From Patescibacteria group bacterium (GTDB taxonomy: Bacteria > Patescibacteriota > Patescibacteriia > SG8-24 > DYFX01), in the NCBI GenBank assembly GCA_030583805.1, contig CP129476.1:245453-309452 (forward strand): a stretch of DNA of 64,000 nucleotides, read 5' to 3'. The translations under genes and the position numbers were made by a program. A model generated the notes under the pieces. The model was not told where the DNA came from, searched no databases, and saw nothing but the letters and a program-made list of their open reading frames with translations. Below are positions 3,625-24,543 of the stretch, one piece after another; the stretch's first letter is position 1, and each line of letters opens with the position of its first letter.

Positions 3625-3797
3625 CGCGCACCCTAACGTCACTCACGTGGAGTGAATAACTCCAGAGAAACGGCCTGAATATGGCCGTTTTTCTGTTGTG
3701 CCTCTCCACGTGTGTGGGATGTGAGTGACATTCCGAACGGGGTGGAATGTACGTAGGTCGAGCCGGTACCAGTCCTAATAACCATACCCAAGACCCT

Positions 3798-5075: not shown

Positions 5076-5811
5076 TCCCGGCGACATCTATGCACTCGGG
5101 AACCATCGGCTGGCCTGCGGCAGCACGAGCGACCACGACCTGCTCCGTCGGCTTTTCGATAACGACAAGATTGACCTCGTCCTCACGGATCCGCCGTATG
5201 GCGTCGCCTACGTCAGCTCGAAGATCGGCGTAACGGAAGGGATCTCGAAACCGAAGGAAATCATCGGCGACCACGAGCAGAGCGACGCGGAGTACCGTGC
5301 CTTTACGAAGGACTGGCTTCTGTCCGCACGCCCATATCTCGCCAAAAAGAATGCGACCTATATCTTCAACTCCGACAAGATGATCTTTGCCCTTCGCGAA
5401 GGCATGCTTGAGGCCGGATTCAAATTCGCCCAACTGCTCATTTGGGTGAAAGACCATGCTGTGCTCGGACGGATGGACTACCTGCCCCAGCACGAACTCA
5501 TCGCCTACGGCTGGTTCGGAACGCATGCGTTCCGGCGTTCGAAGGCTAAGAGCATTCTCGCTTTTCCGAAGCCGGGAAAAAGCCCGCACCACCCCACCCA
5601 GAAGCCAATAGGCTTGCTTCGCGAACTCATCTTGAACAGTTCGAAGCCGAACGACGTGGTCTTCGACGGATTCATGGGCGGCGGCTCGACGCTGCTCGCG
5701 TGCGAGCAGACGAAGCGTCGATGCTTCGGCGTCGAGATCGACGCGGAGCACTGTCTCACGGTTATCCGCAGATGGGAGGCGCTGACCGGACAGAAGGCCG
5801 TGAAGACGTGA
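5035..5811 (+). CDS. beta-class DNA methyltransferase (N4-C/N6-A)
   Basis: DPPYG motif IV, HPTQKP and C-terminal FDGFMGGGST motif I. It overlaps the upstream MTase by 41 bp. Confidence 0.8.
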   Translation: MNSSPETRPSFSISPGDIYALGNHRLACGSTSDHDLLRRLFDNDKIDLVLTDPPYGVAYVSSKIGVTEGISKPKEIIGDHEQSDAEYRAFTKDWLLSARPYLAKKNATYIFNSDKMIFALREGMLEAGFKFAQLLIWVKDHAVLGRMDYLPQHELIAYGWFGTHAFRRSKAKSILAFPKPGKSPHHPTQKPIGLLRELILNSSKPNDVVFDGFMGGGSTLLACEQTKRRCFGVEIDAEHCLTVIRRWEALTGQKAVKT

Positions 5812-5812
5812 T

Positions 5813-6364
5813 ATGAAATCAGGCGCCACAGCATCACCAGCACGGGCGACTCCGGCCGAAAGGCCGGAGCGTCTTAAGGCTCGGCATGCGAAGAAGCTCA
5901 TGCTGGAGATGCTGCGGAAGTACCCGATCATCGAGGCAGCCTGCTCGAAAGCCGGCATTTCCCGTTCGACGCATTATGAGTGGATGAAGAAGGATGCGCG
6001 GTACTCGGCCGATGTCGAACAAGCCACGAGAGCGAGCATCGACACCGTGACCGACATTGCGGAGAGCAATATCATCGAGGGTATCAAGAAGGGAGATTAT
6101 AAATGCTCGGCATTCTGGCTCATCCATCGCCATATGGCCTACAAGAAAAGGAACGATTTGGAAGACACCAAGACAGAGAAACTCCTGATCAAGCCGCCGC
6201 CGAGCGAACGGTTTATCGCTGCGGTCAGAAAATACGATCCTGATTACAATCCTCCCAAAGGGGTGCAATACATCACGCGGGAGGAATGGGAACGCGAACG
6301 ACGGAACGCTGAAGTTTTTTCACGTTTATACGAAGAAAGGCTTCGTCTTGAATCGAGCAAGTAG
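5813..6364 (+). CDS. HTH-domain protein, phage terminase small-subunit-like
   Basis: Has the AACSKAGISRSTHYEWMKKDARYSADVEQA helix-turn-helix typical of phage TerS/homeodomain-like proteins. It starts 2 nt after the MTase stop. Confidence 0.4.
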   Translation: MKSGATASPARATPAERPERLKARHAKKLMLEMLRKYPIIEAACSKAGISRSTHYEWMKKDARYSADVEQATRASIDTVTDIAESNIIEGIKKGDYKCSAFWLIHRHMAYKKRNDLEDTKTEKLLIKPPPSERFIAAVRKYDPDYNPPKGVQYITREEWERERRNAEVFSRLYEERLRLESSK

Positions 6365-6415: not shown

Positions 6416-7450
6416 TCAGTGCCGGATGCCTCCTCCGTCTCGCCAGCAGTCGCCGACCACGTTCCAGTTGTTCAGGTTGAACCAACTGGTCTGGCCCGAC
6501 GACGACCCGTAGAGGAAGAAGTTCATGTTCTGTACCGAGTTGCTCAGGATGAGGCTGTAGCTCGTGACCGAACTCGACCACGTTGCCTTGGGCTTGCCTG
6601 AAGTGTAGGCGCCCCATCCGTCGGTATCCGATCCGTATTCGAGATAGACCGGACTGCCGCTCGGTACGGAGCCGAAGATGCCGTACGGGATGTTGCCCGT
6701 GATCGTCACCGTCATGTCCGGGCCGTTCTCGACGCAGTTGATGGTACCGTTCGGAGGTGCAGCATGCGTGATGACGCCGCCGTTCTTCCAGCAGGCTCCG
6801 CCGACCGTCCAGGCATCGCCGTCGTAGTCGGCGTCCGTCAGGTCGAACCACTTGCCCGTGCTTCCGTCCGTCAGGTACAGGTTGAAGTTGTAGACGTTCG
6901 GAGGGAGAAAGAGCGTGTGGTTGTTCGTGCCGTTCCAGTTCGTGAAGGCCTTGCCCGAGCTGTAGGGAACGCTCCACCCATCCGTGTCCGATCCGTAGAG
7001 GATCTTGGTCGGATTCGTGACGGAGCCGTTCACGAGCATGCTCTGGATCGGCCCGTTCACGTAGACGGAGAGGCCGTTCGAATCGAGCGTACAGCTGATG
7101 TCGCCGGTCGACGGCGGCGGTACGAGGTGGCGAATGCCGCCTCCGTCGCGCCAGCAGTCGCCGGTCACCGTCCAGTCGTTGAGGTCGAACCATCCCTGTT
7201 GCCCGCTCGTCGGGTTGTACAGGAAGAAGTTCATGTTCTGGACGGACGGGTTGAGTGCGAGGGTGTAGACCCTCGGAATCCCTGTCGAAACCCAGTCGCC
7301 GACCCACTCCGCCTTGGGCTTGCCTGAGGTGTAGGCGCCCCATCCGTCGGTATCCGATCCGTATTCCAACAAGGTGCCGGATGCGGTGACCTGGGTGAAG
7401 ACGCCTTCCTGCACGGGACCGGTGATGGACACGTCCAGCGCGGCACCGCT
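6416..7450. repeat. intragenic tandem repeats (~330 bp units, outer copies near-identical)
   Basis: DNA segments around 6596-6650 and 7324-7380 are almost identical (ggcgccccatccgtcggtatccgatccgtattc). They match the protein repeats in the M23 peptidase C-terminus. Confidence 0.6.
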
Positions 7451-8917
7451 CACGCGGCAGTCGATCGTCATGGAAGTGACGCCGCCGCCTTGTCCGCCTG
7501 GATGGCACTCGTTGGACTTGGCGTAGTTGAACGGAACGCTGTTGTTGAGCGGCGCGCCCGACAAGGCCGCGACGGTGCCGTCGGGGATCTGGATGACGTT
7601 CCTGTAGCCTCGGTACGTCCCGTAGACGAGCTGGACGTACTTTCCGAACCCGGCGACCCACTCTTCACGGTTGAGCCGCTGGTAGCGGGTGACCGGCGTC
7701 GATGTCGCGTCGTTGCCAGTGATCGTATCCGCGGTCACGAGCCAGAAGTCGTTGTCACTGGCTTCCTCCACGACCGTACCCACGCGCAGTCCCAGGTTCG
7801 GGCCGGAAGGCATCGTGTTGCATTCCTCGGCCGTGCCCACCTGCAATTCATTGGACTTGAAGCCCCATGACTTGATCAGCGGCTGGTACCGCGCATCCGC
7901 TTGGGTGAAGGGAATCCTGCGCCTGAGAGAAGATGTACCGCTCTTGAACGTGACATAGAACTCAACGGTGACACCTGGGTTGCAAACGACGAGTCTTGTT
8001 GTTTGCTGAGAGGAGATGTCCGGCCCTTGCGCGTAGCAACCGAGCACGTCCGAAGGCACCTCGACGACTTGCGCCGTGGGACTCGACGAATCCTGCCAGA
8101 GCCTGCGCCCGACGAACGCGTTCCAGTCGGTGATGTGACACACCGTGGACTCGCTACAGACGAGGTAGATCTCCGGATGGCCGATCTGCTTGACGAGCGT
8201 GCCGACCGGGAAATGCGTCGCGCCGTTCCCGCCGATCGTCACCCAATGCGACGACTGCGAGAGCGGCATGTCGATATCCAAGAAATGGGTGTAACCGCCC
8301 ATCGGTTCGGGTTTGACGGGCTCGAAGACGTTCGGATCGGATACGGTCGGGCAGTGGAGGGCGAAGTGGATGTGCGGGCCGGTGACATTGCCCGTCGATC
8401 CTTCGTATCCCAGCAGCTGGCCCTTCTGGACGACCTGTCCGTGAACAACCGAGCGGCTGTTCAGGTGGCCGTAGTGCGAGAGACACCCGTTGGAGTGTCT
8501 CACATGCACGTGTCTGCCCCAGCCCGAGTTCCAGTCGTCGCCGCCGCTCCAGGCACGGATCTCGACCGTGCCGGCCGCGACGGCCAAGACGCGCGTGTTG
8601 TTGCCCGAGACGCCGATGCCCGCGAAGTCGATCGCGTACTGGTCATCGCCCAGGCCGCTCCACGAGCTGCCGTGATCGGAGTGGCTGAAGCACTGTGCGC
8701 CCTGCGGCGTGAGGTTGTTCGGGCAGTACGTCTGAGCCACGACGTGCGGCTGGGTCAGATCGAAGGGCAAGCCCAGATCCAATCCGACGTCCGCAGCCGT
8801 GCGCGGTGGGCCCACGATGGGCAGCTCCACGGCACCGGTGTCTTCCGGATCCTCCGCGTAGCAACCGACCAAGATCAACAGCAGGAACTGCACGCACAAT
8901 AGGAGCCTCGTTCGCAT
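6416..8917 (-). CDS. secreted M23-family metallopeptidase lipoprotein with three C-terminal ~100-aa repeats
   Basis: Signal peptide plus lipobox (LILVGCYAE). M23 motifs (HxxxD-like HSDHGSSW, GSTGNVTGPHIHFALH). Three repeats of YGSDTDGWGAYTSGKPKA...NMNFFLY...WFDLNDW...GDCWRDGGGIRH. Confidence 0.85.
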   Translation of the reverse strand: MRTRLLLCVQFLLLILVGCYAEDPEDTGAVELPIVGPPRTAADVGLDLGLPFDLTQPHVVAQTYCPNNLTPQGAQCFSHSDHGSSWSGLGDDQYAIDFAGIGVSGNNTRVLAVAAGTVEIRAWSGGDDWNSGWGRHVHVRHSNGCLSHYGHLNSRSVVHGQVVQKGQLLGYEGSTGNVTGPHIHFALHCPTVSDPNVFEPVKPEPMGGYTHFLDIDMPLSQSSHWVTIGGNGATHFPVGTLVKQIGHPEIYLVCSESTVCHITDWNAFVGRRLWQDSSSPTAQVVEVPSDVLGCYAQGPDISSQQTTRLVVCNPGVTVEFYVTFKSGTSSLRRRIPFTQADARYQPLIKSWGFKSNELQVGTAEECNTMPSGPNLGLRVGTVVEEASDNDFWLVTADTITGNDATSTPVTRYQRLNREEWVAGFGKYVQLVYGTYRGYRNVIQIPDGTVAALSGAPLNNSVPFNYAKSNECHPGGQGGGVTSMTIDCRVSGAALDVSITGPVQEGVFTQVTASGTLLEYGSDTDGWGAYTSGKPKAEWVGDWVSTGIPRVYTLALNPSVQNMNFFLYNPTSGQQGWFDLNDWTVTGDCWRDGGGIRHLVPPPSTGDISCTLDSNGLSVYVNGPIQSMLVNGSVTNPTKILYGSDTDGWSVPYSSGKAFTNWNGTNNHTLFLPPNVYNFNLYLTDGSTGKWFDLTDADYDGDAWTVGGACWKNGGVITHAAPPNGTINCVENGPDMTVTITGNIPYGIFGSVPSGSPVYLEYGSDTDGWGAYTSGKPKATWSSSVTSYSLILSNSVQNMNFFLYGSSSGQTSWFNLNNWNVVGDCWRDGGGIRH

Positions 8918-9025
8918 CTTCCGTCTCTCTCTTTCCTTCCAGTTGTGATGGTACTTCTTGAGACGCTGGTTCGTCCCTTAAACCGCTCGTCACTTTCGTG
9001 ACGAGCGGTGTGAGCGGCGAATCAG

Positions 9026-9712
9026 TTAGAAGGCGGTCGTTCCGAGTATCATCTGTCTCACATCTGGGGAGACATCTATGCCGACTAATGCTTTGTTCGG
9101 ATAGTGTCCAACGATCAGGTATACGCGATCGAGCGCCGGGACGTGGACCAAGAAATGCTGAAGACGCTTGGTTCCACCGGACGCAGGGTCGGCCATCGGG
9201 TCAAACTGATAGATCGGCATCTCCGCTGTGCCGACGTTCGCGCGCAACGCGCGAACTTCCGCGAGAGTCAGATCGAGGAGAGGAATCTTGGAATCGGATT
9301 CTTTGAACGGGTAAATGAGGGCGACCGGGGTTTCCATCTCTCCCTCGCGAAGCATCTGTACCGTGACCGCTCCCGGCAGGCCTTCGGGCGGAAGATCGCG
9401 AGAACCGATCAAACGCCAGTTGCTCGGATGCGGGACCGACAAACAGAGGTACTGATCGTTCTCCACAATCCATCCGCTCGGCGCATTCGCGTCTTTCGTG
9501 GGAACTTCGCCGCACTTGAACGGGCCTTGAGAGGTTTCGTTCGGCTCTCCGTTCTGGCCGTTGGTCTGAGGCGGCATGTAGGGGTAGTTCGGAACGTACG
9601 GAGCTCCGTTGCTGTTGCGATTCATGAAGAACAGGACGGCAAAAAATGCGACCGCAAGGAGAGCGACGCCAGCGATGCTAAGACGGGTTTTCGGGGAGAG
9701 ATGTTTAAGCAT
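9026..9712 (-). CDS. hypothetical membrane-anchored secreted protein
   Basis: One TM helix (LSIAGVALLAVAFFAVLFFM), then a Pro/Asn-rich linker and a globular domain. The start was chosen at MLKHLSPK. Confidence 0.5.
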   Translation of the reverse strand: MLKHLSPKTRLSIAGVALLAVAFFAVLFFMNRNSNGAPYVPNYPYMPPQTNGQNGEPNETSQGPFKCGEVPTKDANAPSGWIVENDQYLCLSVPHPSNWRLIGSRDLPPEGLPGAVTVQMLREGEMETPVALIYPFKESDSKIPLLDLTLAEVRALRANVGTAEMPIYQFDPMADPASGGTKRLQHFLVHVPALDRVYLIVGHYPNKALVGIDVSPDVRQMILGTTAF

Positions 9713-9768
9713 GGGTGTGACTACTGTTACTACCCCATTATACGCGAGGATGTCAAGTCTGTAATGAG

Positions 9769-10578
9769 TCACTTATTTCCGTAGTTGTTAATCGCATGGG
9801 AGAGCACGGCCCCAATAATATCCCGGTTTCCAGGGACTTTAAATTTTAGGAGGCGTGGTCTCGACTTATTGTTCTCAGAAAAGCGAATGCCGTCTGAATA
9901 AAAGTTCAAGTCCAGTATATTTTCAAGCTTGGAGGCAAAAGATTTCTTTTCCCCTCTGAAGATAGCGCGCCTGCTTGTCAGGATCAGCTCACCCTCACAG
10001 ACATCGACCAATCCGGTTTCGCTTTCGATATGGCCTCGATGTCCGCCGATTCGGAAACTCACTCCCTTCATAACTCTTAGGCTTATACCTTGAGATCCGC
10101 CTTGGTATCTCCTGCGGATCACCTTTTCCTCAACCAGAATGACTGGCTCAGCCCAATAGACTTTTTCGCTCTTAAGCGTAATGAGGTTCATAACCGGGCG
10201 AATCACCGGCATATTCCCCTGCCTGATCTCGTTCAAAAGACGAAGTCGCGCGAGCTCTTTCTTATCGTTATGGATTTCACCGTCACTCAAGCCAAGAAGC
10301 TTCTGAATGGCGTGCAACTCGCTCTCTTCCTCTTTAGTCACCTCATTATCTGATTTTGCAGCTGCAAACGCAGTTGTATAAGCCTCAGCTTTCAAACCTC
10401 TGAAGTCTCCGTCTGTGAGTCCAAACTCGGCTTTCAACTTGTCGAGTTCGGACATTTCTTCGAGAGAAATACTTCCATCAGCCGCCGCTTTTAGAAAAGC
10501 TTTTCTAAAAAACTGTTTATTCAGGCTTTTCTGCTTAGCAGCTTTGTACTTATCTACGAGCGTTTGAAATATACCCAT
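9769..10578 (-). CDS. hypothetical protein (TerB-like acidic repeat N-terminus, bacterial PH-like C-terminus)
   Basis: 269-aa ORF that is clearly more AT-rich than its neighbours. It has repeated SxEExxEL...GLxDG motifs, then a beta-rich C-terminal region. Confidence 0.45.
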   Translation of the reverse strand: MGIFQTLVDKYKAAKQKSLNKQFFRKAFLKAAADGSISLEEMSELDKLKAEFGLTDGDFRGLKAEAYTTAFAAAKSDNEVTKEEESELHAIQKLLGLSDGEIHNDKKELARLRLLNEIRQGNMPVIRPVMNLITLKSEKVYWAEPVILVEEKVIRRRYQGGSQGISLRVMKGVSFRIGGHRGHIESETGLVDVCEGELILTSRRAIFRGEKKSFASKLENILDLNFYSDGIRFSENNKSRPRLLKFKVPGNRDIIGAVLSHAINNYGNK

Positions 10579-10944
10579 ACCATTTTTAGAAGTTCTCGAA
10601 CTTCTGATTCATTAGGGTACGGCTCGAAAAACACAAAGGGTCCCCCGAGCCGACGACAGCACTCTTTCGAGCGCTGCCCCACGCCCTTTCGGAATCGTGG
10701 ACCACAACGACGAAGTGCCGGTCGGGAGACCGTCTCTATGTCGTTGTGGATTTATTTGTGCCATGCCACCGGAAACCGGCGGTTTAGGCATTGTGCGGAC
10801 AGGGGAAATGTAGCTTGAAAGGAGTTGGAAGTAAAGTCTTTTACCTACAGCTTGCCAACGAATCAGGGCACGGGTTTTCAGGGGGGGTGCTTATATAAAA
10901 AAACAGGTTGAGTAATCAACCTGCAAGTAACTAACCGAGTTGTC

Positions 10945-11535
10945 TCACTGACACGTCGTGGTCGGCCAGCCGTTGTTCTGGTTCACCCAGTAGCTGGAGC
11001 CGCCGCAGGCGCCGCCATAGAAGTCGATGCGACTCCCGATGTTGACGTTCTGCCAGAGCTCGAAATGCATGTGCGGACCGGTCGAGTAACCGGAGTTACC
11101 CGACTGGCCGACAGAACCGCCGCACAAGATGCTCTGCGGCCAGACGACCGTCCCGTTCTTCAAGTGCGCGTAGATGCTCACCTTGCCGTCAGACGGATGA
11201 GAGATCCGGACGTGGTTGCCGTAACTGCCGCCGCAGGTCTGGTCAGCGCCGCTGTCAGAGCATCCATCGAGCCTGTAGTACAGGGAACCGGAAGCTCCTG
11301 CGAGCACCGTTGTGCCCATGCTGGATGCGAAGTCCGTACCGTTGTGTCCATCGTAGTAGTAGCCCGTCCCGCAATCGTACCGAGTCATTGCTCCGCTGGC
11401 CGAGTTGTGGTCGTACCAGGAGATGTAGCCCGGATTCGAGCTGAACGGGAGGCGGAACAGCGTTCCGGCGTGAGCTGCGTGAGCCACGAACAGAACCGTG
11501 ATGCAGAGGATCGAAAGGGTGAGATACTTTTTCAT
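10945..11535 (-). CDS. secreted M23-family peptidase
   Basis: Signal peptide (LSILCITVLFVAHAAHA). YDGHNGTD (HxxxD) and GPHMHFELW (HxH) zinc-binding motifs. Confidence 0.8.
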   Translation of the reverse strand: MKKYLTLSILCITVLFVAHAAHAGTLFRLPFSSNPGYISWYDHNSASGAMTRYDCGTGYYYDGHNGTDFASSMGTTVLAGASGSLYYRLDGCSDSGADQTCGGSYGNHVRISHPSDGKVSIYAHLKNGTVVWPQSILCGGSVGQSGNSGYSTGPHMHFELWQNVNIGSRIDFYGGACGGSSYWVNQNNGWPTTTCQ

Positions 11536-11566
11536 TTATCCTTCTCTCTTTCTTGGGTGTGCGGGT

Positions 11567-12373
11567 TCAGCGAACGTTGATGGTGTGCCGGACATCCTTG
11601 CCGTCGACAAGAGTGCGGACAGAGATGCTCTTGTCCGGCACGACCCATTGAGGCGCGTCGCCTTCGGCGATCCGGGTGGCAGAAGCGGAGCTGTCAGTCA
11701 GCGCGAACTTCCAAACTCCGGTCTCGTGGCCGTAGGAAGTGAACACCGTCACTCTGTCGGACGACCACAAAGCCGTAGTGGGGCTGATGGTCGGGATCAT
11801 GCGGCCGTTCCGAACCGCTTCCTCGTCGACATTGGTGAGACGCTTGGTCTCACCTGTCTTGAGATTGACCACCCAGAGAGATGCCACGCGGTTTCCTGAA
11901 GAGTCGTCGTACGGCCGCGTGGAGTTGAAGTAGAGCATGCTCAGGTCGCGAGAGAATCCGACGGGAGCGAAATCATCGCTTCCGCCGTTGGTGACAAGAT
12001 ACTCCCGCCCCGTTTGCAGATCATGGACGGCGATGCCCAGTGCGAACTCGAACAAGCTCTGCTCGGCGCCATCTGCCGAACCATCAGCCAGCTTCTCGTA
12101 TGCGACGAAACGTCCGTCGTGGGAGAAGATGGGCGCGGCGCCATGAACCCCGATCTTCTGCAGAACGGATCCGTTGGGATCGACCAACAGAACCTCGTGG
12201 TTCTTGGTCCAAACCGCCTCCAACGCTCCGTCCGGCGATTGGCTCGCCGTGATCACATCATCGGCAAGCGTGGGTTCCGGAATGGGTGCCGACGTCGTCT
12301 CCAGGGAACAGCCTGCAGAAAATGCCAGAAACACTGTTGCAATCAGACTCACAGCCGTAATACCGATTCTCAT
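11567..12373 (-). CDS. lipoprotein with TolB-like beta-propeller repeats
   Basis: Start taken at MRIGITAV. Lipobox AFSAGCS. Repeated DG/SxDG... beta-propeller-like segments. Confidence 0.55.
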   Translation of the reverse strand: MRIGITAVSLIATVFLAFSAGCSLETTSAPIPEPTLADDVITASQSPDGALEAVWTKNHEVLLVDPNGSVLQKIGVHGAAPIFSHDGRFVAYEKLADGSADGAEQSLFEFALGIAVHDLQTGREYLVTNGGSDDFAPVGFSRDLSMLYFNSTRPYDDSSGNRVASLWVVNLKTGETKRLTNVDEEAVRNGRMIPTISPTTALWSSDRVTVFTSYGHETGVWKFALTDSSASATRIAEGDAPQWVVPDKSISVRTLVDGKDVRHTINVR

Positions 12374-12522
12374 GTATCCTCTCAATCTTTGTTGCCAACG
12401 AACGCGTTGCGCGCCCAACCATTGGACGCGCAACGAACGGCAACCTAGCATTGCCATGCTTTTAGTGTCAAGCGGGCATCTTATTGCTAATTAGGCGAGT
12501 AATCTGTCATAATAAAGGGCAT

Positions 12523-13062
12523 ATGGTAACAAAGAAGGTGAGAACCGTTGGATTGGTTGCGGTTGTGTTGATTGCAGTAATGGCAGCCCTCGTGCTTTTG
12601 AAGACGAAATACGCCCCTTCAGGAGAGATTGCGGTGAACGTGCCTGCCGGATGGTATTTGCATCACACAAAGTCCGGGGGCATCATTTTCACTCGCCAAG
12701 AGAACCTGCCCGATATTGGAGCTACGGAAGGATTCGCCTACGGCGAGCAAATCACCATGGCGGAACTGGTGTTGGACAAGTCCATGGAAGAATGGATCGC
12801 TTCGCGGTTTCCCGAAAATGATCCGCTCTATACCCTGAAGGAGCGCGGTACTCTGAGCGGTCATCCGACACTCAGAGTCGAGCATGAAGCGGGAGCTTCT
12901 GGAAAGGTGCTGGACTACTACCTGTTTTCCGGTGATCGCGCTTACGTTTTTTCGCTCTATCCTCTCGAATCATACGACGCTGCCAGCAAGATCACGGTTC
13001 GCAATACTACGAATGTGTTAGTGCTTGAACAGATTGTGAGTGACTACGCGACAAAATTGTAG
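12523..13062 (+). CDS. hypothetical membrane-anchored protein
   Basis: One N-terminal TM helix (VGLVAVVLIAVMAALVLL). The start is preceded by AAGGGC. Confidence 0.45.
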   Translation: MVTKKVRTVGLVAVVLIAVMAALVLLKTKYAPSGEIAVNVPAGWYLHHTKSGGIIFTRQENLPDIGATEGFAYGEQITMAELVLDKSMEEWIASRFPENDPLYTLKERGTLSGHPTLRVEHEAGASGKVLDYYLFSGDRAYVFSLYPLESYDAASKITVRNTTNVLVLEQIVSDYATKL

Positions 13063-13252
13063 TGAGCGGCTCGTGAGAGCAAAAAACTCCTGACGAGAAC
13101 CCTGGCCATTCGGCTAGGGTTTTTCGAAATACCTCTTGTGTGGGAGACCCGTGGTATGAGGCGTTTTAAGGGCGGCCTAGGCTTTACGGTCAGGGTGCGG
13201 CATTGATGTCCTGAAGGCCCCATTTGAGGGCTGTAAGGGCAAATTTGAGCCT

Positions 13253-14554
13253 ATGGACCCTTCTACCAATGATGCACCCGTCCGATACTGCCTGTACGCC
13301 CGCAAGTCGAGCGAACAAGACGAGCGACAGGCGCTATCCATCGATGCGCAGGCCAAGGAGGTGCGCCAGATCGCGGAGCGGGACGGATTGGAGATCGTCA
13401 TCGAGCGGCATGAGAGTCACTCCGCCAAGGACTCCGGCCAGCGACCGGAATACGCCGCGATGCTCGAGGATCTACGGGCAGGTGCGTGTAACGGCATCCT
13501 GACCTGGGCACCGGACCGTCTGAGCCGTAACGGCGGCGACCTGGGACAGCTTGTCGATCTTATCGATCGTGGCAAGCTCATCGAGATCAGGACGCCGAGC
13601 CAACGCTTCACGAATCTGCCAGGCGACAAGTTCCTCCTGATGATTCTCTGCTCGCAAGCGAAGCTGGAAAACGACAACAAGAGCGTGAACGTAAAGCGTG
13701 GCCTCCGTGCCAAGGTCGAGATGGGTTATCGGCCCAACATGTCCCCTCTTGGCTATCTCCACGACAAGTACGCTCCCAAGGGCGAGCGGCGGGTGTATCT
13801 CGATCCGGAGCGGGCACCTGTAATAAAAGAAGCCTTTGAGAATGTGGCCGAACTTGGCTGGAGCGGACGCGATCTCAAGGAATGGTTCGACAATGAAAAG
13901 CGCTTCAAGACGCGAACCGGAAGGCAGATCACGCTCAGCATGATCTACCGGATGATGAGCAACCCCTATTACACAGGCCGGTTCGAGTTCCCAAGTGGCA
14001 GCGGAAAGTGGTTCCAAGGGAAGTATGAGCCGCTCGTCACCCAGACGATCTTCGACAAGGTGCAGGAGACGATGAAGGGCGTACCCCATGCTCCATATGG
14101 AGCCAAGGAATTCGCCTTCACGCGCTTGATGAAGTGCGGCGAGTGCGGAAGCGGCATCAGTGCCGAGGAGAAGTTCAAGCGCCTAAACAACGGCACGGTC
14201 GCCCGTTATGTCTACTACGGATGTAAGGGGCGGTGGATGAAACAGTGCAAGCAGCTCTATATTCGCGAGGAGAACCTTACTGATCAGCTTTGCAAGATGA
14301 TTGACGAAGTTGAGATCGACAAGATTGCCGCCTCACAAGCAGTGCGCACTGAGATTGAGAAGATGAAAAAGGTGGCGATAATGATCGGCGGGTCTGCCAT
14401 CGTCGACCAACTCACGACCGCCGCAGAGAAGTTCGACGTGCGGGCCTATGGAAAGCACGTCCTCAAGGAGGGTACGCGAGAGGAAAAACGTGATTTGCTC
14501 GACAAGCTGAAGTCGAATTTCGTCTTAAAAGATGGGCGGGTGCTCCTAGGATAA
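13253..14554 (+). CDS. large serine recombinase (serine integrase/resolvase family)
   Basis: Resolvase catalytic N-terminus (YARKSSEQD...LSIDAQ, DRLSRN). Recombinase domain and zinc-ribbon (CGECGSG...YYGCKG) plus a coiled-coil C-terminus. Confidence 0.85.
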   Translation: MDPSTNDAPVRYCLYARKSSEQDERQALSIDAQAKEVRQIAERDGLEIVIERHESHSAKDSGQRPEYAAMLEDLRAGACNGILTWAPDRLSRNGGDLGQLVDLIDRGKLIEIRTPSQRFTNLPGDKFLLMILCSQAKLENDNKSVNVKRGLRAKVEMGYRPNMSPLGYLHDKYAPKGERRVYLDPERAPVIKEAFENVAELGWSGRDLKEWFDNEKRFKTRTGRQITLSMIYRMMSNPYYTGRFEFPSGSGKWFQGKYEPLVTQTIFDKVQETMKGVPHAPYGAKEFAFTRLMKCGECGSGISAEEKFKRLNNGTVARYVYYGCKGRWMKQCKQLYIREENLTDQLCKMIDEVEIDKIAASQAVRTEIEKMKKVAIMIGGSAIVDQLTTAAEKFDVRAYGKHVLKEGTREEKRDLLDKLKSNFVLKDGRVLLG

Positions 14555-14590
14555 AATAGCCCTAGGATTTTAACAACAAACACATACACT

Positions 14591-16528
14591 CTAAGACAAA
14601 GCGACGACGTTTTCGGCTCCAAACCATTCCTTTGCCTTCGCAATTACTCCAACTGACGGAGCGTGGAAAAAGACCGCGAGTTGCTCCTTTGAGCGCGTAC
14701 AGCACACATAGAATATTTTCCGTGTTCGCTCTAAGACGCTCGGAGTTCCAGATTCCAGAAAAAGGTTCTCGAAATTATATTCGTTCCATTTCCCGTTGTC
14801 TAAAATGGTGAATACATAATCGAACTCGGCACCCTTGATCTTGTGTTGTGTGGAGAACGGCGTTTTCCCCTCCAAATAATCGTATAATTTTTGAAATTCG
14901 CTGAACCTAACCGCCTTCACTCGATCATACAAGTACTCGTTTTCAATCTTGAAACGAGTAATACTATCGTCGAGCAGGCAGACGCCCTTTTCGTCAGCCA
15001 GACGGACGATCTCTTCGACGGTCTTCTCGCCGACGCTCGTTAGTTCGGTAATGCTGCCTTGTAAATTTAACTTATCTTCAACACTAGAAATACGGAAGTC
15101 AGTAACTCTGAGAAACTCATTGTATTGCTTGTTCTGATAGAGTGAAATATTGTTTTGGATTTTGAAGAGGTGCCTTATCAGGTTGTCCCTTTTTGAACTC
15201 TTTTTATTCTCGTCGCCCTCATCCTGTTTCTTGTCATCTAACAGCTGATCCTTATCGACATAGACTTTTCTAAAATCGGAAAAAAGATATCTGCGAGCTT
15301 TCTCATACAGTTCGGGGTTTGCAGCAAGGAATTTCCCAATCACGGTAGTCGGTTTAATCTGCAGATTCACTAGGTCGACTACCTCGCCAAAAGTCAGGGT
15401 TTCCGCAACCGCGATATTTTTCTCCTTTATTTCCTTCACTATCTTGCCCTTCAATTCTAAAATTCTTTCTTTATCGTATATATCCATCAGAGTCCTAAAT
15501 CCCGCCTTGTCCGCTATCAAGTTGTGCGTTAAATTCAACTCTTTAGTCTCCTTGGAATCAGAAAAATCCCAGGCGAAGTTGGTTGAAAGATAATCCCGCA
15601 CTCGATTTAGGTCTGGGTCGTCCGAGTAGATAAATTTCACTACGCCCACTTTTACATTTCCGCCAGTCAACATGTTCGGTGCGGTGACGTCCGCCGATGG
15701 CGTTTGCACCAAGCCGTCGGTTCGTAGTCTGTTGGCTAGATCGATTATTGTCTTCGGGTTCCTTCTGTTCTGCTCTTTCTTGATCTCCTTAACCTTATCG
15801 GCGGCGTCACCTTTGTATGCGTCCAAATTTCCGATACCCCCGTCATAGATCGATTGCATCGCGTCTCCAAAAAAGCCGATAACATTTTTCTTGGCACTTT
15901 TCTTGAAATGATCGAGAAAGATACCGATCACGGCCTTGTCAGTGTCCTGATACTCATCGATGAAGATGAATTTGAACTTGTCTTTTACTATGTCACAAAG
16001 CTTAGGATATTTTTCAAACAAGTAATTTGCCACGATGAGCAATTCATCGTGTGAAATAATGCCCTTGCTCAGTTTCAGGTACTCCTTGTACTGAATTCCT
16101 TCTTCACAACTATCAAAAAATCCTTCCGGGACGGGATTGGGCTCATCGACCCGTATTTTTTCCACCAGGTCATCATTGGCCAGAGCAATCAAGGCCAATT
16201 TCAGTTCCTTCTGAAAATGCTTAATGTTATCCCATAAGAAATCGTGGATCGTGGACACGCTGAGATTCTTATGCCCAACTCGGTCGCTGATTTCTTTGAC
16301 CGCAGCATTGGTGAAGGTCATGCATGCAATTTTGGCTGTCGGGTTTTCCGCGATGGACTGCCTGATAGTTTGCACCAAAGAATACGTTTTACCGCTTCCT
16401 GCTCCACCACTGAGAAGGAAATTGCGCCCGGAGTCTATGCACCGGAAGATCTCCTGCACTTCAGGCTCCAGCGTCAATCTTGCTTCAGCCATAGCAGCCC
16501 TTCTTTTATGTATGACGGTATTTGCCAA
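14591..16528 (-). CDS. gajB: UvrD/PcrA-like SF1 helicase (GajB-like)
   Basis: Walker A GGAGSGKTY, motif II FIDEYQDTD, Q-motif and C-terminal helicase motifs. AT-rich. It overlaps the upstream OLD gene. Confidence 0.75.
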   Translation of the reverse strand: MANTVIHKRRAAMAEARLTLEPEVQEIFRCIDSGRNFLLSGGAGSGKTYSLVQTIRQSIAENPTAKIACMTFTNAAVKEISDRVGHKNLSVSTIHDFLWDNIKHFQKELKLALIALANDDLVEKIRVDEPNPVPEGFFDSCEEGIQYKEYLKLSKGIISHDELLIVANYLFEKYPKLCDIVKDKFKFIFIDEYQDTDKAVIGIFLDHFKKSAKKNVIGFFGDAMQSIYDGGIGNLDAYKGDAADKVKEIKKEQNRRNPKTIIDLANRLRTDGLVQTPSADVTAPNMLTGGNVKVGVVKFIYSDDPDLNRVRDYLSTNFAWDFSDSKETKELNLTHNLIADKAGFRTLMDIYDKERILELKGKIVKEIKEKNIAVAETLTFGEVVDLVNLQIKPTTVIGKFLAANPELYEKARRYLFSDFRKVYVDKDQLLDDKKQDEGDENKKSSKRDNLIRHLFKIQNNISLYQNKQYNEFLRVTDFRISSVEDKLNLQGSITELTSVGEKTVEEIVRLADEKGVCLLDDSITRFKIENEYLYDRVKAVRFSEFQKLYDYLEGKTPFSTQHKIKGAEFDYVFTILDNGKWNEYNFENLFLESGTPSVLERTRKIFYVCCTRSKEQLAVFFHAPSVGVIAKAKEWFGAENVVALS

Positions 16529-18576
16529 TTATCGAGTTTCTCGCTGCTGTGAAACAGGATGTCTAATGCAAAGTGCGTCTTTTTCTTTATGCAGTTATCG
16601 GCGAGCGCGTACGCATCTTTGGTAGCATCGTCGAAGTCCTTCTTGTTTTGGAGTCCCTTAAAACTCGCTTTATTGGTCGACACGAAAGCACGATTCAGGT
16701 GGATGAAACTGTCTTCGAAACTCCGGGCGTTGTACCCATTTTCCTCAATTTGGTAAACGACACAGATGTCGCCATTGGGATCCTGAGTCCACGTGTTTGA
16801 TGCCTTTTTAAATTTCTTGCCTGATATCGTAAGGCTCTTCAAAGTTCCCAACGTGGCCGTGCCAAAGAAAAACCTGAGGGCGTCGTTTGAGTAATCGGTA
16901 CCGGCGGCGACCCTGCAAGCCCTGCCGTCCGCACCGATGGAGTCCAAGTCCGTGACGATCAGCGACTTGATTCCAAGGAAATCAATAAATTTCTCGAAAA
17001 TTTGTGAGTACGCGCCGACTTCTATTACGGAGATGTTCTGTGACAACAGAGGGGGGTGAGGGTCTACAGTCTTGGCTGCCATATGTTTTTCAGACTCCTC
17101 GATGTCAACTTTCTTCATGATCGTCGGTACCAAAATCCGCTCGGTGTCGCCCTCGATCAAAACTGCCTTCTCTGCAAAAAACACCTCGGCCCTGCTGATC
17201 GTGAGATACTGTTTCAAAAATTGGTACTGGACCGCTTCGGACGCATATTCTTCTTGCAGATCCTTAAGATTTTTTGCGGCGACGCCATTGGCACCATCTT
17301 TTTTGAGGTATTTGATGTCGTCAAAATCACTATCCGCGACGATGTGCGAGGAGTGTGTGCTGATGATGTATTGCAATTTTCGATCCTCCCCATCCTTTCT
17401 CTTGATACCTTCCTTGAGTAGATCCTTGATGTTCTTGATGAACACGTACTGCATTTGGGGGTGCGTGTGTGCCTCCGGTTCCTCGATAAAAAGCAGGTTG
17501 ATGTCTGCGGGCCTCGACTCCCTTTCTTTCTTGAACTCCTGCAAAAGGATCTCAATCTCAAAGATCATGCTGATCAGGTTCATATAGCCCAGACCGTTGT
17601 AGTGCTCAGGGAGCAGATTGTCCGTGTCATGCCTGTATACGACGGTGGTATTACCTTCAAGCAATCTCTGGTGCTGTAACGTAGAGATAATCTCAATCTC
17701 TGATTCGGAAATTTTGATTCCTCCGAATTTTTTTACTTTCTCTATCGCGCCGCCGAACAGGGTTTTATACACCTCGCTCAAGCTTACATCGGCCTCGCTT
17801 AATTTGCCCTTGAAAACCTCGATGACCTCGTTCTGATCGTCGCTTATCTCTGTCCTGTCGTAAATCTTGGAGGTTTGGGCAGACAGTGTTTTATCTGAGT
17901 CGCTATTAGTGACCTCCCTTTTGGCACTAACGTATTTAAAATTGATTATGTCCTTGATGTTTATTTTTTCCTTGATGAGGTCAATGAAATTTGCCTCGTT
18001 CTCCAGTTTGGTAGTCTTATCAAACCCTATGGTCTTTTTGTTGATTTTAAAATAAATGTGATGGTTTAATTTTAGGAAATCGTATACACGCTTCGGCTGA
18101 TATTTCGCGTCTTTAGCCTTCTTTGCCTCCTCATCCTTTTTAAACACCGCATACTCTCCTTTGACCTTAGTGTAGTCACCAAAGTTTAAGGTGTAATCAA
18201 AGCCGAGGACCACCACATTATTCGCGGGATCCAGATCCATCATCACCCGTTCGACGTTGGACAAATTATCGCCAGCTCCGTACTCGATGAAAATTTTTAG
18301 TTTTATACCCAAGCCGTGGAATTTACTGAAATCGTCTTCCGATAGGTCGTTCGCATCCTCAATCAGAGTCTTTAGTTCCTTTTTGAAGTCGGTATTGAAA
18401 TCGTCAAAAGAAAACCTATGCTTCTCGGACTGGTTGAGGAACTTATCGAGAATGGTCAGTATCGATGTCTTTCCGGTGTTATTCTTTCCGATCACCAGCG
18501 AAAGCTCATCCTCCAGGTCTATGGAGATTTTTTTAAGAAGCCGATAGTTTTCGATCTGTATTTTGAATATTTTCAT
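16474..18576 (-). CDS. gajA: OLD-family ATPase/Toprim endonuclease (class 2 OLD, GajA-like)
   Basis: N-terminal ABC-type ATPase (GKNNTGKTS Walker A; LLFIEEPEAHTHPQMQ Walker B/H-loop). C-terminal Toprim (VLIEGDTERIL, IVTDLDS). Located immediately upstream of a UvrD-like helicase. Confidence 0.8.
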   Translation of the reverse strand: MKIFKIQIENYRLLKKISIDLEDELSLVIGKNNTGKTSILTILDKFLNQSEKHRFSFDDFNTDFKKELKTLIEDANDLSEDDFSKFHGLGIKLKIFIEYGAGDNLSNVERVMMDLDPANNVVVLGFDYTLNFGDYTKVKGEYAVFKKDEEAKKAKDAKYQPKRVYDFLKLNHHIYFKINKKTIGFDKTTKLENEANFIDLIKEKINIKDIINFKYVSAKREVTNSDSDKTLSAQTSKIYDRTEISDDQNEVIEVFKGKLSEADVSLSEVYKTLFGGAIEKVKKFGGIKISESEIEIISTLQHQRLLEGNTTVVYRHDTDNLLPEHYNGLGYMNLISMIFEIEILLQEFKKERESRPADINLLFIEEPEAHTHPQMQYVFIKNIKDLLKEGIKRKDGEDRKLQYIISTHSSHIVADSDFDDIKYLKKDGANGVAAKNLKDLQEEYASEAVQYQFLKQYLTISRAEVFFAEKAVLIEGDTERILVPTIMKKVDIEESEKHMAAKTVDPHPPLLSQNISVIEVGAYSQIFEKFIDFLGIKSLIVTDLDSIGADGRACRVAAGTDYSNDALRFFFGTATLGTLKSLTISGKKFKKASNTWTQDPNGDICVVYQIEENGYNARSFEDSFIHLNRAFVSTNKASFKGLQNKKDFDDATKDAYALADNCIKKKTHFALDILFHSSEKLDNWQIPSYIKEGLLWLKQD

Positions 18577-18697
18577 TGCTTCTCGTCGAGGTTCTTCGGA
18601 TTGATCTTTTGATTTGTGAGCGTTACTTTATCTCATCCATGTCATTTAGTAAATCGGCGCATTTTTGGTATACGAGATGACCAAAGATGCCAAGATC

Positions 18698-18730
18698 ACA
18701 AAAGCCAGCCATTTTCATGGCTGGCTTTTG
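18698..18730 (-). terminator. rho-independent terminator downstream of tRNA-Asn
   Basis: Perfect hairpin AAAGCCAGCCAT-tttc-ATGGCTGGCTTT, followed on the minus strand by a T-run. Confidence 0.5.
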
Positions 18731-18764
18731 ACCAAGCACGTGGGTCGCCCCACACGCTTGCTCA

Positions 18765-18839
18765 TGGCTCCGAGGCTGGGATTCGAACCCAGGACCAATG
18801 GATTAACAGTCCACTGCTCTACCGCTGAGCTACCTCGGA
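18765..18839 (-). tRNA. tRNA-Asn (anticodon GTT)
   Basis: The reverse complement folds as a cloverleaf. Acceptor stem TCCGAGG/CCTCGGA, anticodon loop CTGTTAA, T-loop GGTTCGAATCC, encoded CCA. Confidence 0.85.
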
Positions 18840-18854
18840 AGGTGCCTGGAACGG

Positions 18855-22250: not shown

Positions 22251-24044
22251 TCAATTGTGCAGACGTTTGGCGATTGCCTCGAGGCGTTTGGCGATGTGTG
22301 TTGACGCCGCGCGGTCTCCGCGCTGTTCAGCCTCGGCGAGGGCCCCGAGTAATTCCTTTTCCGTTTTCTTGACGGCGGATTTTTCAAGTTCCCGCGCGCA
22401 GACGGAAGCCTCTTCGGCCAATTGATCTTCGGTCCATTCCGGCATGTCGCGATCCATCAAAAGGAGGATCGGCTCGACGGCGGGGAGCGTCGGATCGGCC
22501 TGCCTGGCATTCGCGTACCAGGCAAAAAAAGGCGGTTCAAGGAGGGGGGCTTTTGCATTCTCAGTATAATACGCGGATAACAATTTGGCGAGGGTGCGGA
22601 GCTCGCCTTCCGGAATGCGGTCATCCAGGGCTGAAACATGCGCCTTGAACCGCTCGGGGTCGTGAAGCATGAGCGCCAGAAGCCGCGTCGCCAAGCGCTC
22701 CTCGCGGCTGTCGATTTTCGGGGCTTGCGGCCGTGGTTGCGGCTGCTTTTGAGCCGGTGCTGCGGCCGAAATGACGGCCGAACGAACCGCGTCGTCGCCC
22801 AAAGCGAGTCGTTGCGCCACCGCGTGAATCCAGTGATCGCGAAGCACCGGATCTTCGAGCAAAGCGAAAATTGGTTTCAGCGATTCAAGCGCCTTGCGTT
22901 TGCCGTACGGGTCCTTCAAATCGACGGTGCTGATGGCGCGTTCGACGGAGAACTCGATCATGTCTCGCGCTTCGCTGATCGCTTTGCGCCACAATTCCGG
23001 GTCCTTGCGGATCACTTCGTCGGGGTCTTTGAATCCCGGCGGCAGCACGACGACCATGACTTGCAGGCCGCTCTTCCAAGCGTGCGGCAGCGCGCGCGAA
23101 GCGGCGTTCTGCCCGGCGATGTCGGCGTCGAAGGCGAGCGCGAGGCGCGAGCAGTAGCGTTTCAAGACGTCGATCTGGTCTTCGGAGAACGCGGTGCCCG
23201 AAACCGCCACGACGTTTTTCACGCCCGCCTCATGCGAAGAAATCGCGTCCATGTTGCCTTCGACCAGCACCGCGAAGTCGGCTTTCTTGATTTGGTTCTT
23301 GGCGCGGTCAAGCGCGTAGACCAAGCGACGCTTCTTGTAGACGATCGTCTCCGGCGTGTTGACGTACTTCCCGGTTTTTTCCGCCTCGGCGCTGTCCGGC
23401 ATGATGCGTCCGGTGAAACCGACGACCGTGCCTTTTTCGTCACGGAGCGGAATCATGATGCGATCGCGGAAGCGATCGTAGTGGCTGCGGTTCTTGTCGC
23501 TCGGAATCGCGAGTCCGGCCGCGACGAGCTTGTCCATCGGGTGGCTCTTGCCGGCGAGCGCCTTGACCATCGCGTCCCAGCTTGCAGGCGCGTAACCGAT
23601 GCGGAATTCCGCGAGCGTTTCCTCCTTCACGCCGCGCTTGGCCAGGTACGCGCGGGCGCGGTCTCCCGTGGGCGCGTGCTTGAGCGCCGCCTCAAAGAAG
23701 CGTGCCGCGTCTTCCAAGGCGGCCAGGACGGCTGCGCGCTCGGAATCGGCCTGCGGGTCGAACTCGGGCAGCTGGACGCCGGCGCGCCGCGCCAGCTCCT
23801 TCAAGGCGTCGCGGAAGTCCACGTTTTCCATCTTCTGATAGAAGGTGTAGACGTCTCCGCCTTCGCCGCAGCCGAAACAGTGCCAGAATTGCTTGTCGCG
23901 ATGCGCGTAAAAACTGGGGGTTTTTTCCCCATGAAACGGGCAGAGGCCGCGCAGCGATTGGCCGCCGGCGGGCTGCAGGCGGACGTATTCGCCGACCACG
24001 TCGATCAGGTCGGTTTTTTGCTTTACCTCTTCGGAAGCGGTCAT
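22251..24044 (-). CDS. dnaG: DNA primase DnaG
   Basis: Zinc-binding [11 protein letters not shown]...CFGCGxGGD, Toprim (EGNMD), and a C-terminal helicase-interaction domain. The start was placed at MTASEEVK. Classic dnaG-rpoD operon. Confidence 0.9.
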
Positions 24045-24161
24045 GGCTCCACCATAGCGTTCTCTTGACTTTTCACGCAAATCTGCATCTTTCGTGCCAC
24101 CCCTCGGATCTTGCTTTTCTGGCGTCGTTACGTTAGACTGAGCCGGTAAATCCACCGGCCC

Positions 24162-24249
24162 GGAGGGGTCGCATAGTGGTCGAGTGCGCTCGCTTGGAAA
24201 GCGAGTATACCGCAAGGTATCAGGAGTTCGAATCTCCTCCCCTCCGCCA
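24162..24249 (+). tRNA. tRNA-Ser (anticodon GGA) with long variable arm
   Basis: Acceptor GGAGGGG/CCCCTCC, anticodon loop TTGGAAA, long extra arm, T-loop AGTTCGAATCT, encoded CCA. Confidence 0.85.
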
Positions 24250-24255
24250 GAAAAC

Positions 24256-24280
24256 GCCTGGACGTCGTCCGGGCTTTTTC
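24256..24280 (+). terminator. rho-independent terminator after tRNA-Ser
   Basis: GCCTGGACG-t-CGTCCGGGC hairpin followed by TTTTT. Confidence 0.5.
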
Positions 24281-24306
24281 TTATGCTAGATCGGCGAGGA
24301 GGTCTC

Positions 24307-24543
24307 ATGCGCTCATTCGGCACTCCGCCCGATCCGGAGCACGCGTGGCAGGAAGGCATGACCGTTCAGACGCTGGAGTTCATCAGCGAAGCCGAGCGAG
24401 TCATCGCGACGAACACCTTGTCCGAGAAAGAGGTCTACGTCTTGCGCGCCAAGATCGACCGGCTGAAGGACGGCCAGGAATCGCTCGACGAATCGGACAC
24501 CTTCGACGAGTGGCTCGAACAGCTCCGCCATCATCACCCCTGA
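24307..24543 (+). CDS. small hypothetical acidic protein
   Basis: 78-aa ORF downstream of the tRNA-Ser. Coding status is uncertain. Confidence 0.3.
   Translation: MRSFGTPPDPEHAWQEGMTVQTLEFISEAERVIATNTLSEKEVYVLRAKIDRLKDGQESLDESDTFDEWLEQLRHHHP

Follow-up and report, generated by a model that had tools for sequence, protein, structure and literature searches.

The window analysed here is the whole 64-kilobase (kb) stretch at positions 245,453 to 309,452 of contig CP129476.1, from a Patescibacteria group bacterium. It carries two overlapping minus-strand genes, gajA and gajB, between a large serine recombinase gene and a tRNA-Asn gene. A preliminary description of this DNA had proposed a Gabija anti-phage cassette flanked by the recombinase and the tRNA, and each of these elements was found where it had been placed. 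The features of the locus are listed below, with coordinates counted from the first nucleotide (nt) of the window and protein lengths in amino acids (aa).

13253-14554 (+): large serine recombinase, 433 aa; integrase of the surrounding phage-like element
14555-14590 (no strand): convergent spacer from the recombinase stop to the gajB stop, 36 nt; left edge of the variable slot
14591-16492 (-): gajB, 633-aa UvrD/PcrA/Rep-like superfamily 1A (SF1A) helicase
16474-18576 (-): gajA, 700-aa class 2 OLD nuclease (ABC ATPase plus Toprim) with an ATG start
18577-18698 (-): gajA upstream region, with the presumed promoter and ribosome-binding site; last part of the variable slot
18699-18764 (-): 3' flank of tRNA-Asn, with hairpins of 12-bp and 13-bp stems, the second being the terminator; right edge of the slot
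18765-18839 (-): tRNA-Asn(GTT), called by ARAGORN and matching Rfam RF00005 (74.9 bits); its 3' end points toward the recombinase gene

The gajA-gajB gene pair

The 700-aa protein matches Pfam AAA_15 over residues 1-413 (E 2.9e-67) and OLD-like_TOPRIM (PF20469) over residues 466-545 (E 6.8e-13), and its residues 1-699 align with positions 1-701 of the 702 in the PADLOC GajA model PDLC00079 (953 bits). The ATPase motifs are a Walker A (GKNNTGKT, 30-37), LLFIEEPE (361-368) and an H-loop STHS (406-409). The Toprim catalytic residues are the glutamate E475 and the DxD pair D543/D545, equivalent to E379 and D432/D434 of Bacillus cereus GajA (numbering of PMC10781630), and all of the ATPase and Toprim catalytic residues are invariant across 66 homologues. 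The helicase has the Pfam domains UvrD-helicase, AAA_19 and UvrD_C and matches the PADLOC GajB model PDLC00135 over almost its full length (784 bits). Its motifs I-VI are complete (Walker A GAGSGKT, 30-36; DEYQD, 179-183; GDAMQSIY; QNRRN; HKIKGAEF; TRSK), and the catalytic motifs of the two proteins are unvaried in 65-66 homologues.

AlphaFold2 monomer models were made from the homologue alignments, with mean predicted local distance difference test (pLDDT) values of 74 for GajA and 83 for GajB. The top Protein Data Bank (PDB) matches of the GajA model are B. cereus GajA structures (8X5I, 8U7I and 8SM3; E ~1e-12); the GajB model is nearest to UvrD/PcrA/Rep and then to B. cereus GajB. Class 2 OLD proteins typically carry a helical insert in Toprim. 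The spacing from Glu to DxD is 68 residues here versus 53 in B. cereus GajA, and the GajA model places helices at 478-500 and 525-534 in this interval, where local pLDDT is mixed.

Gene order was compared in a sample of 80 loci from GTDB genomes encoding a full-length relative of the window GajA. A gajB relative lies directly after gajA in 80/80 of these, at 58-77% GajA identity and in many phyla, mostly Bacteroidota. Because a UvrD-like helicase adjoins gajA, an arrangement kept throughout the sample, the pair falls within the published definition of class 2 OLD, or Gabija, systems (PMC10568477). Judged from its sequence, the region 14591-18576 (-) is a complete two-gene Gabija system with intact catalytic motifs. 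Two other assignments were considered and rejected. A stand-alone class 1 OLD protein of the P2 Old type is at odds with the conserved helicase partner and with a PADLOC Old score of 95.6 bits against 953 for GajA; in the case of PARIS, the AriA model matches the ATPase part alone (212 bits, residues 1-413), whereas Toprim is fused here and the partner is a helicase.

It is barely credible that the two genes encode a housekeeping or repair nuclease-helicase pair in which the helicase is a UvrD/PcrA orthologue. The GajB profile does score slightly higher against PcrA/UvrD than against B. cereus GajB, but the pair has a patchy cross-phylum distribution at 58-79% identity with no synteny, deviates extremely in composition, and gives full-length matches to defence-specific hidden Markov models (HMMs); the slot that it occupies holds restriction-modification, Shedu and Old genes elsewhere. 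Three results support the preliminary description: the ATPase has a Toprim domain by profile search, with Glu and DxD intact; both proteins match the PADLOC GajA and GajB models end to end; and the helicase differs from a housekeeping UvrD, as it is paired with gajA at every sampled locus across many phyla and shows no conserved synteny.

The helicase had been given as 645 aa, which is correct for the maximal open reading frame (ORF; 14591-16528 (-)), beginning at TTG, and not for the product. Read from the ATG at 16492 it has 633 aa, the same length as in NCBI entry WKZ29375.1 and in the gene call of an independent contig. The NCBI products of the exact proteins are WKZ29376.1, WKZ29375.1 and WKZ29374.1, all from a Patescibacteria group bacterium metagenome-assembled genome, on a contig of 1,167,441 bp. 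With this ATG taken as the gajB start, the real overlap of gajA and gajB is 19 nt (16474-16492), as against 55 nt with the maximal gajB ORF. The gajA-gajB order with overlapping ends is borne out with that refinement, and the two genes are translationally coupled via the overlap.

Both proteins had also been described as about 120-150 aa longer than canonical GajA and GajB, which is numerically right. B. cereus GajA has about 578 aa, and the solved chains of B. cereus GajB have 493-499 aa. As direct alignment to B. cereus GajA failed, the extra residues of the window GajA were placed through the published active-site numbering (PMC10781630). It is longer by about 122 aa, with 96 before the Toprim Glu, 15 between Glu and DxD, and 11 at the C-terminus; the 96 fall in the ATPase plus its inserted dimerisation region. 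GajB is near-collinear with B. cereus GajB in a profile alignment (residues 17-254 versus 5-237), and about 122 of its approximately 139 extra residues lie past residue 254. The C-terminal half enlarged in this way is predicted by the structural model to contain a largely helical region (323-540), and its added residues make GajB as large as full-length UvrD/PcrA/Rep. No additional Pfam domain was detected in either protein.

These lengths are common ones. The best-matching PADLOC models are 702 (GajA) and 603 (GajB) positions long, many other GajA models have 660-750 positions, and homologues at E <= 1e-10 include more than 5,600 GajA-like and more than 4,500 GajB-like proteins. By these profile matches the 700/633-aa form is an existing, widespread Gabija subfamily with its own reference HMMs, not a new subtype. 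Of the earlier suggestion of a divergent subtype with extra domains, the distance from the B. cereus pair holds, but the subfamily is a catalogued one and no Pfam domain has been added.

Comparison with known systems places the pair as follows. The B. cereus VD045 Gabija system (PDB 8SM3, 8U7I, 8X5I and 8J4T) shares the two-gene order, an ABC ATPase plus Toprim with Glu and DxD, and an SF1A helicase with a DExQD box; it differs in being only 14-16% identical and in its shorter proteins (by about 122 aa for GajA and about 139 aa for GajB). The PADLOC PDLC00079/PDLC00135 subfamily, which is common in Bacteroidota, has the same lengths and the same overlapping pair, with 58-79% identity between the window proteins and those of hundreds of genomes; what differs here is the Patescibacteria host and the location in a serine-recombinase phage-like element beside a tRNA gene. 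Three OLD entries (6NK8, 6NJV and 6P74) are the sole PDB sequences that HMMER detects for the window GajA. The match to the class 1 Thermus scotoductus OLD (6P74) runs from Walker B to Toprim (E 6e-13), and among the class 2 OLD proteins of Burkholderia pseudomallei and Xanthomonas campestris (6NK8, 6NJV) the Toprim core of 6NK8 is matched (E 1e-5). At 528 aa, the T. scotoductus protein belongs to class 1 and stands alone (PMC10568477), whereas the window GajA is paired with a helicase and 170 aa longer.

The slot between the recombinase gene and tRNA-Asn

The interval 14555-18698 has a GC content of 0.443, compared with 0.608 for positions 19000-64000 (standard deviation 0.009 in 4.1-kb windows; z = -17.5), and is the lowest-GC 4.1-kb stretch in the window; the earlier statement that the GC content of the pair is far below that of the surrounding chromosome is thus quantified. 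GC content at third codon positions (GC3) is 0.54-0.60 in gajAB, 0.30-0.45 in the nearest relatives and ~0.72-0.85 in host genes. The nearest GajA and GajB relatives (72-79% identity) lie on contigs of ~40% GC, one of them from Candidatus Yonathbacteria. Proteins rich in Lys, Asn, Ile, Phe and Tyr account for part of the low GC. The composition is read as pointing to horizontal acquisition of gajAB from a lower-GC lineage, followed by partial amelioration.

A sister locus (L242, from Logan SRR6202010) was reached through a protein that clusters with the window recombinase at 90%. Its gene order is ParB-methyltransferase, methyltransferase, terminase small subunit (TerS), terminase large subunit (TerL), one further gene, recombinase, a 329-aa gene, a 581-aa Old-type gene and tRNA-Asn. 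The recombinase is 90% identical to that of the window in protein and 83% in DNA (window 13280-14527), and the tRNA-Asn gene with its two hairpins is 97.9% identical to window 18699-18843. Homology runs up to the recombinase stop codon and begins again at 18699, with nothing homologous between these points, and because it breaks there we define the variable slot as 14555-18698. In L242 the slot (11316-14216) carries the 581-aa Old-type gene, which encodes an ATPase-Toprim protein and has Old as its best PADLOC model (E 6e-47), together with the 329-aa gene. The two loci, compared at the level of sequence, show defence cassettes apparently exchanged at the slot between recombinase and tRNA-Asn. 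Beyond the 5' side of tRNA-Asn the DNA of the window and that of L242 are unrelated; since the tRNA 3' flank is conserved and the host DNA is not, the element would integrate into the tRNA gene and supply its 3' part.

Two further features of L242 were recorded. The 329-aa gene has no family hit, and together with the Old-type gene it may make up a two-gene OLD system not yet characterised. Upstream, the locus also has an AIPR gene and a type II restriction-modification pair.

The breakpoints agree with the preliminary description in that the low-GC block starts after the recombinase gene and ends at the tRNA-Asn terminator. They modify its picture of a tRNA island, as there is a foreign block between recombinase and tRNA-Asn, but as the cargo slot of a larger element and not as a free-standing island. 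The attachment (att) sites or duplicated tRNA-Asn 3' segments that it suggested looking for at the edges were not found in the window. Scans with a 25-mer (3 mismatches allowed) and a 14-mer (2 allowed), blastn-short across the window and a k-mer comparison of the slot edges returned matches at chance level only. The slot edges share no repeat of 8 nt or longer, which makes it likelier that cassettes are swapped through homologous recombination within the conserved flanks than through a mechanism specific to the cassette.

A hairpin at 14544-14567 (7 bp, then TTTT) folds at -9.8 kcal/mol, no better than shuffled sequences. The gajA upstream region (18577-18698) has no homology to L242 and no significant RNA structure (z = +0.67); a promoter scan of it gave no match of 9/12 or better, and visual inspection alone suggested a weak TTTACT-17-TAAAGT. 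In scans for promoters and terminators, sites were not more numerous than in shuffled sequence. The two hairpins at 18699-18764 fold at -44.9 kcal/mol (z = -8.0), and this flank is a candidate att arm derived from the element. An Rfam scan of 12-20 kb found tRNA-Asn only.

Empty sites were sought by exact look-ups of the flanking proteins, which returned only the same sample, as short contigs broken inside the tRNA. Two contigs of near-identical sequence (L001 and L082, from the independent assembly Logan SRR24881069) both end inside tRNA-Asn, at window ~18805-18822; these ends could reflect strain heterogeneity at the integration site, or tRNA k-mers common to several genomes.

The same kind of arrangement is known from the defence hotspots of P2-like prophages and P4-like satellites, including P2 old (PMC9122126), where unrelated systems are likewise swapped at a fixed spot between conserved flanks. 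OLD-family genes are among the cargo in both settings (Old in L242, Gabija in the window). Unlike those hotspots, the slot described here is associated with a serine and not a tyrosine integrase, occurs in Patescibacteria-type hosts and lies between the 3' end of the integrase gene and the attachment end at the tRNA.

The recombinase family and the surrounding element

The recombinase has the Pfam domains Resolvase, Recombinase and Zn_ribbon_recom and matches the phrog_95 integrase (E 2.4e-64); its YARKS(S/T)E nucleophile motif and zinc-ribbon Cys ligands are invariant in our recombinase alignment (A3). In domain composition, and in the position of its gene at the end of a temperate element, it resembles integrases of the phiC31, Bxb1 and A118 type, but it is short (433 aa) and belongs to a family tied to many tRNA 3' ends. 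Alignment searches found at least 572 metagenomic relatives and 67 in IMG/VR.

From these searches 147 recombinase loci were retrieved (L095-L241), 50 of which are followed downstream by a tRNA gene. In 50/50 of them the first such tRNA is convergent with the recombinase gene (3' to 3'), lying 120-250 nt away in 12 of the loci and 0.75-7 kb away in those remaining. Eighteen different tRNAs are represented, tRNA-Asn being the commonest, and the tRNA partner tracks the recombinase phylogeny (common to 19/53 nearest neighbours; permutation p <= 5e-4). The 92 ORFs between recombinase and tRNA are rich in defence genes, which include type I, II and III restriction-modification, MutH-, DpnII- and MamI-type endonucleases, Shedu SduA and AAA_13. 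By comparison, a tRNA lies within 1 kb in just 1/80 of the GTDB Gabija loci; tRNA adjacency as a general trait of the Gabija subfamily was rejected for this reason, and we attribute the tRNA link to the recombinase element and not to Gabija.

Two repeats near tRNAs were seen at other recombinase loci. L133 has a 49-nt direct repeat (94% identity; 10825-10873 and 11082-11130, ~230 nt apart) that spans the last ~10 nt of tRNA-Asn and the downstream hairpin, and resembles what one integration after another at a single site would leave behind. In L102, the cargo region contains a repeat of 19 nt from the tRNA flank.

The family is also linked to phage genes. In 60/67 viral loci the recombinase has upstream of it a ParB-methyltransferase that is homologous to window 3747-5075, and TerS and TerL lie within 10 kb of the recombinase in 9/12 sampled viral loci. 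The window retains part of this hallmark module, with PHROG matches (3747-6364) to phrog_498 and phrog_4044:

3747-5075 (+): ParB-methyltransferase, Pfam ParB_N plus N6_N4_Mtase
5035-5811 (+): second DNA methyltransferase, same hallmark module
5813-6364 (+): terminase small-subunit-like gene, same hallmark module

Gabija is found with related recombinases elsewhere. The arrangement of gajA and gajB converging on a recombinase gene recurs in L085, L089 and L091, whose recombinases are 49-51% identical to that of the window, giving four lineages in total. In L091 a 17-nt exact direct repeat of the tRNA-Glu(CTC) 3' end, ATTCCCCGTAGAGTCAC, is present at 1019-1035 and 10369-10385, and is a candidate attL/attR pair. 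The repeats bound 9.35 kb containing gajA, gajB, the serine recombinase, AAA_28, NUDIX and two unknown genes; because they enclose gajAB along with the recombinase, they support the location of gajAB inside the element.

In another lineage, a 560-aa serine recombinase gene lies directly upstream of gajA. Members of the same Gabija subfamily also occur in conjugative-element-like contexts with TraG/TrwB and DUF87 ATPases (L086-L088 and L093-L094), in one case beside ParDE and a DUF87-SIR2 pair; such contexts suggest that the cassette moves among different kinds of mobile element.

We consider it very probable that gajAB is a complete Gabija system, horizontally acquired and carried as cargo in a serine-recombinase phage-like element at tRNA-Asn. 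A free-standing chromosomal defence island, with gajAB inserted by tRNA-Asn independently and the recombinase adjacent only incidentally, since tRNA sites gather foreign DNA, would account for the sharp GC step precisely at the recombinase stop codon, for the host-like GC3 of the recombinase (0.72) as against that of gajAB, and for the lack of an att duplication in the window; moreover, just 2/80 GTDB Gabija loci have a recombinase homologue, weak and non-adjacent in both. We nevertheless regard such an island as unlikely. It does not explain the same convergent gajA-gajB-recombinase layout in four independent lineages, the enclosure of gajAB plus recombinase by tRNA 3'-end repeats in L091, or a convergent tRNA at every one of the 50 loci, and the 98% conservation of the tRNA 3' flank with L242 next to unrelated host DNA is as expected if the flank is owned by the element.

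Nor does the recombinase seem to mobilise gajAB alone, as a minimal three-gene, 5.5-kb cassette between tRNA sites with the upstream phage-like genes unrelated to it. The recurrence of gajA-gajB-recombinase with differing flanks in the window, L085, L089 and L091 is in keeping with a unit of this kind, as is an RHS toxin gene abutting the recombinase in L089. Against it, L242 combines the same recombinase and tRNA flank with other cargo, the recombinase is linked to ParB-methylase, TerS and TerL in most loci (the window keeping the ParB-methyltransferase, methyltransferase and TerS), four further genes lie inside the L091 repeats, the recombinase and gajAB trees are incongruent, and no repeats of 8 nt or longer were found beyond chance from the region upstream of the recombinase to the tRNA edge. 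We hold this to be very improbable.

Several observations weigh against the interpretation of gajAB as Gabija cargo of a phage-like element. Similarity of GajA to the only biochemically characterised GajA, that of B. cereus, is below HMMER detection, as neither phmmer nor a 66-sequence profile gave a hit, and the fold match is at 14-16% identity with template-modelling (TM) scores of 0.29-0.35 from a moderate model (pLDDT 74); with similarity this low, the mechanism is transferred by family membership alone. How Gabija discriminates self from phage is itself disputed, between nucleotide sensing and DNA ends lacking RecBCD (PMC12407980). The recombinase has a GC3 of 0.72 versus 0.54-0.60 for gajAB and the two phylogenies are incongruent, so recombinase and gajAB have not always travelled together. 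The 64-kb window contains no second copy of the tRNA-Asn 3' end, no far end of the element and no att sites, and no large terminase homologue anywhere; lacking the latter, the window copy is probably defective, and "cargo of a mobile element" may describe its history rather than its present mobility. Finally, the viral status of the IMG/VR contigs is a prediction.

For the wider family we lean, with some reserve, towards a large undescribed group of temperate-phage-like elements of Patescibacteria, whose integrases (430 aa) would target the 3' ends of at least 18 tRNAs with a self-supplied flank, and whose slot would serve the exchange of Gabija, Old, restriction-modification and Shedu genes by recombination in the flanks. 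A literature search found no description of this serine-integrase, tRNA-linked element family.

Predicted mechanism, significance and neighbouring genes

By analogy with B. cereus, the system might work as follows. The two genes would be transcribed from a promoter region of their own, immediately inside the tRNA-Asn terminator, and GajA and GajB would assemble into a hetero-oligomer as in B. cereus (PMC10781630, PMC10568477), for a Gabija system expected to be a GajA4:GajB4 complex. GajA would cut or nick invading DNA once inhibitory cellular nucleotides fall, the DNA ends so produced would be acted on by GajB, and replication of the phage would stop; protection would be expected to need both genes. 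A different, non-abortive mechanism has been put forward for Pseudomonas aeruginosa Gabija (PMC12407980), in which linear DNA ends without RecBCD/AddAB are recognised and circularisation of the phage genome is blocked, with no nucleotide sensing. Nothing in the sequence separates the two models; B. cereus GajA shows ATP-inhibited, site-specific nicking in vitro (PMC10568477), which argues against the DNA-end model, and we think the latter possible but doubtful for the window system. As for the element, the cassette appears to occupy the variable cargo slot of a temperate-phage-like integrative element, seemingly defective, inserted at tRNA-Asn; the recombinase gene and the tRNA arm are the flanks in which recombination probably exchanged it with other defence cassettes. 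Carriage of Gabija would exclude rival phages to the benefit of the element, as suggested by the P2/P4 hotspots (PMC9122126).

Gabija ranks among the most common anti-phage systems, and reference HMM sets already include this subfamily; the cassette alone adds no new biology. It does document Gabija in an ultra-small Patescibacteria genome; the defensome of the candidate phyla radiation (CPR) was recently surveyed, with Gabija among the systems discussed (PMC12259885). The window and L242 constitute a clean natural swap pair, in which defence cassettes are exchanged at one fixed position of a serine-integrase element, much as at the P2/P4 hotspots. What stands out most is a by-product, the family of tRNA-linked serine-integrase elements and their defence slot; the locus is otherwise an ordinary defence island. 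Short serine integrases with many tRNA-linked targets could interest recombinase miners once their att sites are defined, and the 12 recombinase loci with 120-250 nt to the tRNA are the best material for that definition.

To the left of the recombinase gene, ~6.8 kb of mostly minus-strand genes (6416-13062) take the place of TerL. These include two M23 peptidase genes, at 6416-8917 (-) and 10945-11535 (-). The former encodes 833 aa, has a host-like GC content of 0.63 and contains internal direct repeats (6419-7366) with spacings of ~340-370 and 710-730 nt that are up to 94% identical. The gene at 9769-10578 (-) encodes 269 aa at a GC content of 0.46, has weak matches to TerB and to PADLOC PDC-S48 (E 2e-10), and may be a further defence-related gene within the element; this hit and the methyltransferases were the only other defence genes that PADLOC reported in 1-13 kb. 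The ORF at 5068-5958 (-) was rejected as a gene, being a shadow of the plus-strand methylase at 5035-5811. Positions 1-1900 form a second low-GC patch (0.41-0.46) with three minus-strand genes, two of which match only phrog_19960 and phrog_12893, of unknown function; the element probably runs on leftwards past the window.

To the right of tRNA-Asn lies core chromosome, with genes for a Big_5-domain protein, rpoD, dnaG and lgt. The maximal dnaG ORF (22251-24359 (-), 702 aa) spans tRNA-Ser(GGA) on the opposite strand (24162-24249 (+)), and because of this crossing we place the true start of the primase further downstream.

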